Position numbers and translations under genes: made by a program | Notes under the pieces: model-generated | What the model was told of the DNA's origin: nothing | Seen by the model: only the letters and a program-made list of their open reading frames with translations | The model's database searches: none | Source: Podarcis erhardii | Lineage: Eukaryota | Assembly: GCA_964252035.1 (NCBI GenBank) | Contig: OZ176204.1 | Strand: one strand, 5' to 3' | DNA length: 64,000 nt | Part shown: positions 39,644 to 42,671 of the stretch, piece after piece | Numbering within the stretch: the stretch's first letter is position 1 | Layout: the number at the start of each line of letters is the position of its first letter

Positions 39644-42313
39644 ATGCAAGGACTCAAAATGGATGCTAAGAAGGGGGGAGCCCTGCCTTCTCCGCCCCTT
39701 TTGACCAGTGACAATTATGCATCTTGGTCTATTAAGATGAAGGCCCTGCTGCAGAATCAGAGACTGTTTGGGGTGATTGAGAACCCCATCCCTCCAGCAC
39801 CAACGCGTGCTTGGGAGTCACAGGATGTGAAGGCCAGAACTGCTATAATTCTGTGCGTGTCAGACTCTGAGCTTATCCATATACAAGATTTACAGCACGC
39901 GAGAGATGTTTGGGACACGCTGAGAAGGACACATCAGAGAGATGCAGGTTCTTCAGCGTTGCTGTATTTTGAGAAGCTGACCAACCTGAGGCTTGCGCCT
40001 GATGGAGATGTTCAAGCGCACCTGACGGAAATGAAATTTCTGCGTCAACAGATGGTGGAACGTAATTTGCGTCTGCAGGAGGAAGTGTTTTGCTTCATGG
40101 TCATCAACAGTCTGAATCGGACTTACAAAACAGTTGCCAGTCAGCTGGGGTCCCTCCCAGCAGCTGATCTAACGTCGGAAAGGGTCTTTGCCGTGGTTCT
40201 TAATGAACATGACAGACTTGCCGCCCTGGAAGTCAAGGACTGGGGGAGACAAGAACGGAGTTCTGACACCCCCACTGCTACAGCTACTGGAGAAAATGCC
40301 GTAGCTTTGAACGTTGTCCAATGCTACAATTGTGGACAGACTGGGCATCTTCAGCGGTACTGCAAGAAGCCACGTCAGAACAAGGGAGCCAAGGGAAGCT
40401 CCACGAAGTCTGAGGCGTCAGGCAGAGGTCATGCCAAGTCACAGACGAAGCCTGCAAAGGCTTTGATGTCGAAAGGAACCAAGCCAGAAGTGGAGAACAC
40501 TTTTATCATAGACACTGGGTGCACATTTCACATGACCCATCGCAGGGATTTGTTTTCGTCGTTTAAGAAGCAAAGCTTCGTTGTACAACAAGCCAACGGT
40601 CAAGAGCTGGAAGCCACTGGAATTGGGACTGTGTATCTTAAAAGTCAGAACTTGACTATAAACAATGTTTATTTGGTTCCAGAGTTGAAGTACAATCTGC
40701 TCAGCGTTTCGCAGATTGCCAAGAAGGGACTAAAACTGTCCTATGATGATCAACACTGCGAGATCTACAAAGATGGAGAGTTGTATCTTTCTGCCGAAGA
40801 GAAAGATGGACTATATTTGTTGACTTTTGTTCAAAGTGATTACATGGAATGTAATTCTTGTGATTCTAACATGATTTCTTTTGCAGGTGTAGCCAAGAAG
40901 AACACCAAGCAGGTCACCTCGAGGGTCGACAAGGCATTTCAGCGAGTGTATGCTGATGTGATTGGTCCTTTAGCACCATCTAGAGGCAATGCAAAGTATT
41001 ACCTAATATGTGTTGATTCTTTCACAGGTTTTGTCTGGATTTATCTTTTGGAGAGACCGAAAGAAGCCTTAGAAAGGTTTAAAGAGTTTTGTGACAAGGT
41101 TAAAAATATGCATGATGCTGACATAGGTTGTCTTTGCACAGATGAGAAGCCAATTTTTCTTTTACAGGATTTCCAGAGGTTCCTGAAGAAGAAAGGGATA
41201 AGACACAAAATTGCAGCTTCAGAAGAAGCTTGGAACAGATGTGTCTGTGTTAGGGTGAACAAAGAATTGCAAAAGGGAATGGAAGCGCAATTGCTTAGTT
41301 CACATCTGCCACATGAATACTGGGCTGAATCGCTAACGTCATTTTGTTATACGTGGTTGAGAAAGTTTTCAAAAGAGTTGGGAAGTTCTCCTTTTGAGAA
41401 ACTGTTCCATAGAAAACCTTCTGTTGCCCATTTCAAGGTTTTTGGGTCTCATGTGAGGACAGGAGCTCCGGGTGGAGTAAAGAATGTCAGAGGCATTTTT
41501 GTGGGTTATGAGAAGGGTCTCTACAGAGTAATTTTGTCTGAATCTGGTAAGGTGATTCTCACAAAATTTCTAGAGAGTGCTCCTGAACAGGAGAGAGTGG
41601 TTGTTCACACATTTCCCACAGGTGATGATGATGATTCTGATGATGATGTTGATTTTGTTGAGTTCAGTAGTACTGATGACAGCGATAGCTCAGACAGCTC
41701 AGTTGTAACAGTCATTGAGAGGAAATCTCACGTAATGACTAGACCCTCAGAAGAGGAGGAAGACGAACCACTGTTTACAATTGGTACTGGTTCTCCAAAG
41801 AGTCCAAAGGCTGAACCAGAAAGCAAAGAAGAGCAGCACTTCTTACGTAGGTCTGAGCGAGCAACGAAGGGTGTACCACCCAAGAGGTATTCAAAGGAGT
41901 TTGCTAACCTAGCTGTTGCTATTGTAAACGACCAAGGTCAAATTGAAGCTGTGTCTGAGTCAGAGACAAAGGCACAACAGGGAGTTGTTAACCAAGGTAA
42001 TGCAGAAGCACTCATTCCTTGGAAGTCACACAACCAGAGAGGTACATTGGTAAAACCAGTGGCGGGTAGTTCCAAGGGTGGAACTGAAACAACAGGGGAG
42101 TGTTATAAGTATAACAACTGTTTGTTTTCTTCTCTGGATGACGCTTTGCTCACAGCACGCATTGATACTTTAGGGGGAGTATGTTATTCTAAAGCAGCAA
42201 TGCTGCAGCAAGCAAAGGCTCTAACAGCTCAAACAGCTGCTAGTGGCACCAAAGCCAGACAGGATGTGTGTGACTGTTGCCATGGAAACAAAGGGGCAGT
42301 CCATCCTTATTGA
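39644..42313 (+). CDS. Copia-type Gag-protease-degenerate integrase polyprotein, 889 aa, no RT/RNase H
   Basis: Gag (NYASWSIKMKALL...W), CCHC knuckle CYNCGQTGHLQRYC (40322-63), protease IIDTGCTFHM (DTG 40511-19), integrase core YADVIGP/CTDEK, SH3-like GIFVGY, post-IN RRSERATKGVPPKRY; stop lies inside the 3' LTR. Confidence 0.92.
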   Translation: MQGLKMDAKKGGALPSPPLLTSDNYASWSIKMKALLQNQRLFGVIENPIPPAPTRAWESQDVKARTAIILCVSDSELIHIQDLQHARDVWDTLRRTHQRDAGSSALLYFEKLTNLRLAPDGDVQAHLTEMKFLRQQMVERNLRLQEEVFCFMVINSLNRTYKTVASQLGSLPAADLTSERVFAVVLNEHDRLAALEVKDWGRQERSSDTPTATATGENAVALNVVQCYNCGQTGHLQRYCKKPRQNKGAKGSSTKSEASGRGHAKSQTKPAKALMSKGTKPEVENTFIIDTGCTFHMTHRRDLFSSFKKQSFVVQQANGQELEATGIGTVYLKSQNLTINNVYLVPELKYNLLSVSQIAKKGLKLSYDDQHCEIYKDGELYLSAEEKDGLYLLTFVQSDYMECNSCDSNMISFAGVAKKNTKQVTSRVDKAFQRVYADVIGPLAPSRGNAKYYLICVDSFTGFVWIYLLERPKEALERFKEFCDKVKNMHDADIGCLCTDEKPIFLLQDFQRFLKKKGIRHKIAASEEAWNRCVCVRVNKELQKGMEAQLLSSHLPHEYWAESLTSFCYTWLRKFSKELGSSPFEKLFHRKPSVAHFKVFGSHVRTGAPGGVKNVRGIFVGYEKGLYRVILSESGKVILTKFLESAPEQERVVVHTFPTGDDDDSDDDVDFVEFSSTDDSDSSDSSVVTVIERKSHVMTRPSEEEEDEPLFTIGTGSPKSPKAEPESKEEQHFLRRSERATKGVPPKRYSKEFANLAVAIVNDQGQIEAVSESETKAQQGVVNQGNAEALIPWKSHNQRGTLVKPVAGSSKGGTETTGECYKYNNCLFSSLDDALLTARIDTLGGVCYSKAAMLQQAKALTAQTAASGTKARQDVCDCCHGNKGAVHPY
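42172..42179 (+). promoter_or_regulatory. Polypurine tract AGGGGGAG
   Basis: 2 nt upstream of the 3' LTR TG; typical copia PPT. Confidence 0.85.
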
Positions 42314-42671
42314 GCACAGGATATGAGCTCAGTGTGTGTCATATGACCTGTACAGGATGTACATGGGTGGAGTTTGGAGTTTCTCTCTGTTTGTTGAAGA
42401 GAGCAGACATCTTTTACTGTATGACTGCTAAAGACAGGAATAAAAGCAATGTAGATACGTTTCTGTCTGAGTCTGATTCCCCTCCCTGGGGATATGCAGG
42501 GAGGAGGAGAAGGAGGAGAAGCAGTTGGTGGTTTTTCTCACAGCCTGAGGAAAATCGCCGGAACGGACCTCGTGTGTGCATTCCTGCCGGGAGTCGCCGG
42601 AGGGAGGTCAAAGGAATTCAGCCGGTGCCTGCAGATAGGCACATACCTCTGATCGAGCCTGAATTTTAACA
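42182..42671 (+). repeat. 3' LTR
   Basis: tgttattcta...attttaaca; AATAAA 42439-42444. Confidence 0.97.

Follow-up and report, generated by a model that had tools for sequence, protein, structure and literature searches.

Long terminal repeat (LTR) elements that lie in an intron in the sense orientation of the host gene can cause premature polyadenylation of its transcripts, a mechanism that is real. In mouse, such sense elements are over-represented among mutagenic insertions, and their consequences vary between a negligible change and complete loss (PMC3735543, PMC1794541). The nearest squamate case is a corn-snake Copia element in intron 11 of OCA2 (amelanistic) and in intron 5 of CLCN2 (Stripe), the effect of which appears in cDNA as three internal fragments (397 bp) with premature stops and no terminal exon (PMC4657000, PMC11948899); its domain coordinates, with RNase H first and gag last, suggest that it lies antisense. 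In plants, LTR elements that lack a reverse transcriptase (RT) and carry Gag or Gag-protease, some of them with decayed Pol domains, have been described (PMC9784723; bioRxiv 10.64898/2026.03.01.708851). Here we analyze a 64,000-nucleotide stretch of Podarcis erhardii DNA (assembly GCA_964252035.1, contig OZ176204.1; hereafter the window), in which an RT-less Ty1/copia element occupies an intron of PCDH15. A first-pass annotation of this stretch had read the insertion as a natural gene trap, in which premature polyadenylation would release a secreted EC1-EC11 ectodomain. Our analysis points instead, with moderate confidence, to a young non-autonomous copia element that was inserted in sense into an intron still mostly spliced from position 36939 to position 44770 (36939^44770).

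The element is a Ty1/copia LTR retrotransposon of 4,023 bp (38649-42671) with TG..CA ends, and its sense orientation in the intron after the EC11 exon is as the first-pass annotation had placed it. The 5′ LTR (38649-39139, 491 bp, TG...CA) and the 3′ LTR (42182-42671, 490 bp) are direct repeats that differ at 4 of 491 aligned columns (one insertion or deletion [indel] and three substitutions, 0.8%), and the 5-bp target-site duplication ATACC is found at 38644-38648 and at 42672-42676 (these and the following coordinates refer to the + strand unless noted otherwise). Directly 3′ of the 5′ LTR lies a motif resembling a primer-binding site, putatively of the copia type (39140-39155), and a polypurine tract (42169-42181) precedes the 3′ LTR. 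Both previously reported LTR AATAAA motifs were found, at 38906-38911 in the 5′ LTR, where a GT-rich stretch follows, and at 42439-42444 in the 3′ LTR, where the motif is likely the element's own poly(A) signal. The encoded Gag and protease are of the copia type, with the integrase directly 3′ of the protease, an order that was established from Pfam profiles and from alignment to full copia polyproteins.

A single uninterrupted frame of 891 codons spans 39638-42313 and encodes 884 amino acids from its first Met (39659-42313), comprising DUF4219/Retrotran_gag_2, a zinc knuckle, a Pol_BBD protease, a weak rve domain and an SH3 domain (Pfam matches PF14223, PF13961, PF00098, PF22936, weak rve, and PF25597), followed by an acidic linker and a short remnant of the RT start. 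RVT_2 was absent from this frame and its tail in the Pfam scan, and alignment to full copia polyproteins likewise showed that RT-RNase H is missing except for a short piece of its start. The frame ends inside the 3′ LTR, some 130 nt upstream of the AATAAA that begins at 42439. The integrase-like core (40955-41251) retains D433 and D495 but has Val at the third acidic position (531), and, relative to full copia polyproteins, a deletion has removed the His pair from the N-terminal zinc-binding motif; judged from these residues, the domain is catalytically dead. The element thus has neither the RT/RNase H nor the complete HHCC and D,D,E integrase of an autonomous Ty1/copia element. As in TR-GAG-type elements, its LTRs enclose an open Gag-protease frame without RT, although a further Pol domain is present here. 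The insertion in the PCDH15 intron is a full-length, non-autonomous Ty1/copia element of a high-copy lacertid family, most likely copied in trans by the enzymes of an autonomous element.

The host gene, a lacertid PCDH15 on the + strand, contributes seven exons to the window, from EC10 to the transmembrane exon. Six of these have no mismatch to the Podarcis muralis PCDH15 protein P0011, and the first differs by one residue; this exon (2524-2628) encodes Leu where P. muralis has Pro, unlike all of the at least 15 lacertid proteins listed. Most of EC11 is encoded by exon 36724-36939, which ends in ...SNKSDVL with a phase-0 donor (CTT|GTAAGT) of moderate score, 6.9, on a crude vertebrate splice-frequency matrix that was used for all splice scores below. 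The next exon (44770-44858) encodes the end of EC11 and the start of MAD12 and has a normal acceptor with a score of 12.2; the two exons match consecutive residues of solved PCDH15 chains. In the lacertid PCDH15 cluster of 33 members, every one of the 15 listed continues with VSVVNQ after DVL, and those species may lack the insertion. Four of the 120 PCDH15 matches listed (P0026, P0031, P0032, and P0033, fragments of 126-215 aa) end within 60 residues after DVL; none of the four ends in DVLV-stop, and they look like read-through gene models. The host sequence also contains an AATAAA within the EC11 exon itself (36922-36927, 12 nt 5′ of the donor) and another in the intron 5′ of the element (38293-38298). 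At this locus the LTR AATAAA would serve the element's own transcripts, and most PCDH15 pre-mRNA would most likely keep the 36939^44770 junction, with trapping or exonization minor at most.

The first-pass annotation had proposed that a 36939^40887 splice joins the EC11 exon to a terminal exon polyadenylated near 42460. The letters of that proposal are all in place, with the phase-0 donor at 36939, ...TTCTAACATGATTTCTTTTGCAG|GTGTAG at 40887, and the next exon at 44770. The proposed acceptor (40864-40892) consists of a branch-like CTAAC, a pyrimidine tract, and CAG|GTG TAG; it lies in phase 1 inside the uninterrupted 891-codon frame of the element, a circumstance that the earlier account did not mention. 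With a score of 10.3, it ranks sixth among the 655 AGs of the intron, behind 41168 (13.0), 44770 (12.2), 39798 (11.8), 39012 (10.8), and 37957 (10.4). Elsewhere in the intronic sequence of the window (~55.8 kb), 28 AGs score at least as high (0.5/kb), seven of them with a YTRAY branch motif, and the element itself has four such AGs in sense and eight in antisense. AATAAA is comparably frequent background, with 54 occurrences in 59.8 kb of the window (0.9/kb). As in an ETn-like gene trap, the element lies in sense in a host intron and brings an LTR poly(A) signal; by the matrix used here, however, its acceptor at 40887 is no stronger or more specific than background. The observation that the added Val equals the one supplied by the normal next exon is correct in its letters and fails as support, since any AG|GT gives Val; reading through the donor at 36939 also starts with Val (VSMH..., 48 residues and then a stop). 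Over the acceptor site, a Podarcis relative reads SNEISLAGM, compared with SNMISFAGV in the element. A search for annotated proteins that start at the frame opened by 40887 gave seven matches (7,998 candidates scored), and none of the four lacertid ones starts there. We take 40887 to be a cryptic AG that happens to fall within a coding frame.

Several observations weigh against a predominantly normal splicing of this intron. The acceptor at 40887 outscores six of the seven real PCDH15 acceptors in the window, and among the AGs of the intron with a branch motif none ranks higher; the matrix behind these rankings is a crude one. Before the insertion the intron was only 3.8 kb long, and a distance of 1.7 kb separates the element from a donor of moderate strength. 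In mouse, transcription is often disturbed when a full-length LTR element sits in sense within a small intron (PMC3735543, PMC1794541), and the corn-snake Copia enters the mRNAs of OCA2 and CLCN2 by splicing, with strong phenotypes as the outcome (PMC4657000, PMC11948899). Even so, we regard a PCDH15 gene trap as speculative and probably minor.

For the specific 36939^40887 route, the branch motif and pyrimidine tract at the acceptor are favorable, as is the stop after a single codon, given that only one of the 28 background sites has a stop within three codons. A soluble PCDH15 from an alternative last exon is also known: in mouse, exon 26b yields such a form, which is secreted in HEK293T cells (PMC6909182), and a secreted PCDH15 isoform is already cited elsewhere (PMC3679001). 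Exon 26b lies two exons upstream of the present intron, because the exon 25 and 26a primers translate to the window exons at 2745 and 16654; the exon 26b primer itself, with three mismatches allowed, had no match in the window. Set against this, stronger acceptors compete with 40887 both upstream and downstream, of which 39012 and 41168 would lead to quite different products; two AATAAA motifs come first (the identical one of the 5′ LTR and the one of the host intron at 38293); and the would-be terminal exon contains strong donors at 41546 (10.2) and 41452 (8.3).

The predicted product also departs from the proposed clean EC1-EC11 ectodomain. In the pig PCDH15 structure, L1218 and V1222 belong to EC11 and the linker is N1223-X-L-D1226; the contact of MAD12 with EC11, through strands A′, F′, and G′, covers approximately 640 square angstroms of mostly hydrophobic surface, and MAD12 induces PCDH15 dimerization (bioRxiv 10.1101/460097). 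In pig numbering, the ...DVLV* product would stop at 1219, whereas EC11 continues to V1222, and MAD12 would be lost; the product is not a clean EC1-EC11 because the last strand of EC11 is three residues short. It would have no transmembrane helix and no complete last EC repeat, and exposure of the hydrophobic EC11-MAD12 face makes its folding and secretion doubtful. With the Val match uninformative as well, we consider it improbable that the 36939^40887 exon yields a secreted EC1-EC11 at a level that matters.

A broader alternative is that the element measurably traps or poisons PCDH15 transcripts through other sites, namely a cassette exon at 39012-39303, the AG at 41168, or cleavage at the 5′ LTR AATAAA. 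The candidate 292-nt cassette, which the first-pass annotation did not mention, is open and joins a strong acceptor in the 5′ LTR (10.8) to a strong donor (CAG|GTATGA, 8.2); it is entered in phase 0 and left in phase 1 without a stop, so that joining it to 44770 produces a frameshift, whereas a junction with 40887 would keep the reading frame through the final 474 codons of the element and so fuse it to the integrase-like domain. The AG at 41168 (41144-41168), the strongest of the intron, would in phase 0 fuse the last 381 residues of the element frame, with a stop that precedes the poly(A) signal of the 3′ LTR. Both 39012 and 41168 outscore 40887, and the corn-snake copia inserts act by several internal cassette fragments. 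However, both sites lack a YTRAY motif at -45..-15, and pseudo-exons of such strength are common, the window holding six acceptor-donor pairs of like strength (five acceptors), two of them in the element. Trapping through these sites therefore seems unlikely overall, and it is highly improbable that this PCDH15 copy yields an in-frame EC1-11/pseudo-integrase fusion, either by way of 39012-39303^40887 or by way of 41168. The window's strongest pseudo-exon, 48161-48475 (acceptor 12.0; donor 11.6 at 48346), belongs to the intron that follows 44858; the stretch around it is GC-richer and contains several long open frames.

Among at least 15 joints and four table rows from four data sets covering 36500-42181, none joins 36939 or 39303 to an acceptor in the element; these joints come from contigs, none of which is on record as RNA, and the result therefore bears neither way. 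The four belong to 13 runs found for this stretch, of which 7 were guessed to be RNA and 0 are recorded as such. In data set X4, which carries another organism label, the cover fits the EC11 exon alone (depth ~11 by arithmetic) together with diverged copies of the family.

The acceptor at 40887 could also belong to the element itself, which would pair it with the donor at 39303; the resulting env-like spliced RNA would bypass Gag-protease and code only for the integrase-like domain. The donor follows a 27-codon frame from the ATG at 39222 and is in phase 1, matching 40887, but such a match has a one-in-three chance of arising by accident, and family copies in X1, X8, and X11 have a TGA a few codons after the ATG as well as frame-changing indels in the leader. 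Since the leader frame is closed in other copies, we hold this splice to be quite improbable, and favor the view that a non-autonomous element lies within an intron that is mostly spliced normally.

The insertion is, as judged from its LTRs, young, and the earlier suggestion that it may be polymorphic is reasonable given the 4 differences in 491 LTR columns and an apparent empty site in data set X11. The flank of X11 differs from the window at 22 of 1,577 letters (1.4%). The first 379 letters of a 1,895-letter X11 contig fit 38257-38648, and the match breaks off precisely where the element was inserted. If the other 1,516 letters are 3′ flank, they would reach 44192, which is 25 letters into an inverted-repeat element at 44167. 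A contig break is expected at this repeat, and the contig probably represents an empty site. The LTR divergence of 0.8% is smaller than the flank divergence of 1.4%, which fits an insertion after the split. In data set X8, the flank of which is identical to the window, a contig covering 38230-38673 extends 25 letters into the LTR at a depth of 103, compared with 97 on unique flank, hinting at an animal in which both chromosomes bear the insertion; this is only a hint because 25 letters fall short of the 31-letter bridging rule and X8 is possibly the window's own sample. Presence on both chromosomes would fit the idea that the insertion is tolerated, although hearing and balance depend on this gene.

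Relatives of the element are found in gene models of Podarcis lilfordi and P. muralis, at 71-78% identity and with the same RT-less tail. The integrase-like part was searched, profile-free, against 1.84 billion representative proteins. A Zootoca vivipara relative (P0149, XP_060129920.1, "FAM168A isoform X1") has 869 aa of Gag-protease-integrase without RT at 42% identity, and an unnamed relative (P0150) has 845 aa of the same arrangement, without RT in frame, at 38% identity over the alignment. Since the contigs that carry P0150 are only 3.1-3.8 kb long, an RT may follow farther on in a different frame. In the aligned integrase cores (154 proteins tried), D,D,E is kept in 139 of 153, whereas the triad reads D,D,V in three Podarcis-like rows and G,N,V in the Zootoca row; both the His pair and D,D,E are present in P0150. 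In a quick tree built from 63 of the 153 integrase rows, the five RT-less proteins group together (SH-aLRT 98), and the four with a dead integrase form a subgroup that excludes P0150 (99). In both DNA-like runs, contig depths summed over the element reach approximately 10^4-10^5, compared with about 10^2 for the flank; this reflects many family copies and gives no copy number.

The open frame appears to be retained in the family. Of the 12 indels shown relative to family copies in contigs (80 more are hidden), 11 lie in the LTR or leader, and the one within the frame measures 3 nt. Nine of the 15 in-frame substitutions shown are synonymous, compared with 22% expected (p = 0.002), in a test that saw only 40 of 445 differences and in which transition bias raises the synonymous share. 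Together, these patterns suggest that the family retains its frame. A tentative interpretation is that these elements form an undescribed squamate lineage of RT-less copia, in which the integrase was still intact after RT loss, as in P0150, and then became a selected non-catalytic pseudo-enzyme. Such a pseudo-integrase might dock the element's RNA particle onto the enzymes of a helper element, or its frame might keep the RNA translated to approximately 130 nt short of the poly(A) signal. Our literature search found no description of this lizard family; Repbase and subscription journals were outside that search, and the family may be catalogued there. Two models of vomeronasal type-2 receptor (V2R) 26-like genes in Podarcis (P0002 and P0003) and the FAM168A model P0149 consist wholly or largely of the copia frame, and may be either mis-annotations or genuine copies in host transcripts.

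Several other repeats were observed in the window. Just 5′ of the element, a short multi-copy repeat (38020-38290) has a depth of ~1,000-3,700, compared with ~90 on the flank (X8 and X11). The inverted-repeat element 3′ of the insertion is a 230-bp sequence resembling a miniature inverted-repeat transposable element (44167-44397), with 25-nt terminal inverted repeats and related copies at 12171-12406 and 14744-14981. An open 449-codon frame on the - strand (18654-20003) occupies a GC-richer stretch of the intron that precedes the EC11 exon; it has no Pfam match and looks like a putative DNA-transposon transposase. A broken antisense element resembling a long interspersed nuclear element (25299-29334, - strand) has RVT_1 matches in two frames, and a small piece of it recurs at 34450-34633. 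An Rfam scan of 36500-45200 gave no matches.

A genuine gene trap at this site would add an example from a non-model lizard to a mechanism that is already well known. Should carriers have reduced amounts of full-length PCDH15, or produce a soluble or a fused protein, the insertion would provide a naturally occurring tip-link allele that can be compared with empty-site animals. The sturdier point concerns the family, a high-copy and recently mobile vertebrate LTR element that is RT-less and has an open frame with a dead integrase. It offers a tractable case for how non-autonomous elements keep selected proteins after enzyme loss, and it contaminates lizard gene annotations, including the V2R-like and FAM168A models.

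Compared with the described systems, the locus shares with the mouse ETn/MusD and IAP insertions a sense, full-length LTR element that gives intronic acceptors and an LTR poly(A) signal, but those elements are retrovirus-derived with known functional acceptors, whereas the site here is a cryptic one in a copia coding frame. Like the corn-snake Copia, the element is a young intronic squamate Ty1/copia whose cryptic splice sites can enter host mRNA; the snake element is 5,832 bp long with RT and RNase H, whereas the lizard element is RT-less and in sense, and its effect is only predicted. With mouse exon 26b it has in common a PCDH15 product without the transmembrane part from an alternative terminal exon, which in the mouse is host-encoded and SAM68-regulated and here would be element-derived. 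Further counterparts are the plant TR-GAG-type elements, which also have two LTRs, a length of ~4 kb, a retained Gag (and protease), and no RT. Unlike these, the lizard element resides in a vertebrate host and carries a full integrase-like core and an SH3 domain in the same open frame, and its family keeps that frame under apparent selection, with relatives down to 42% identity.

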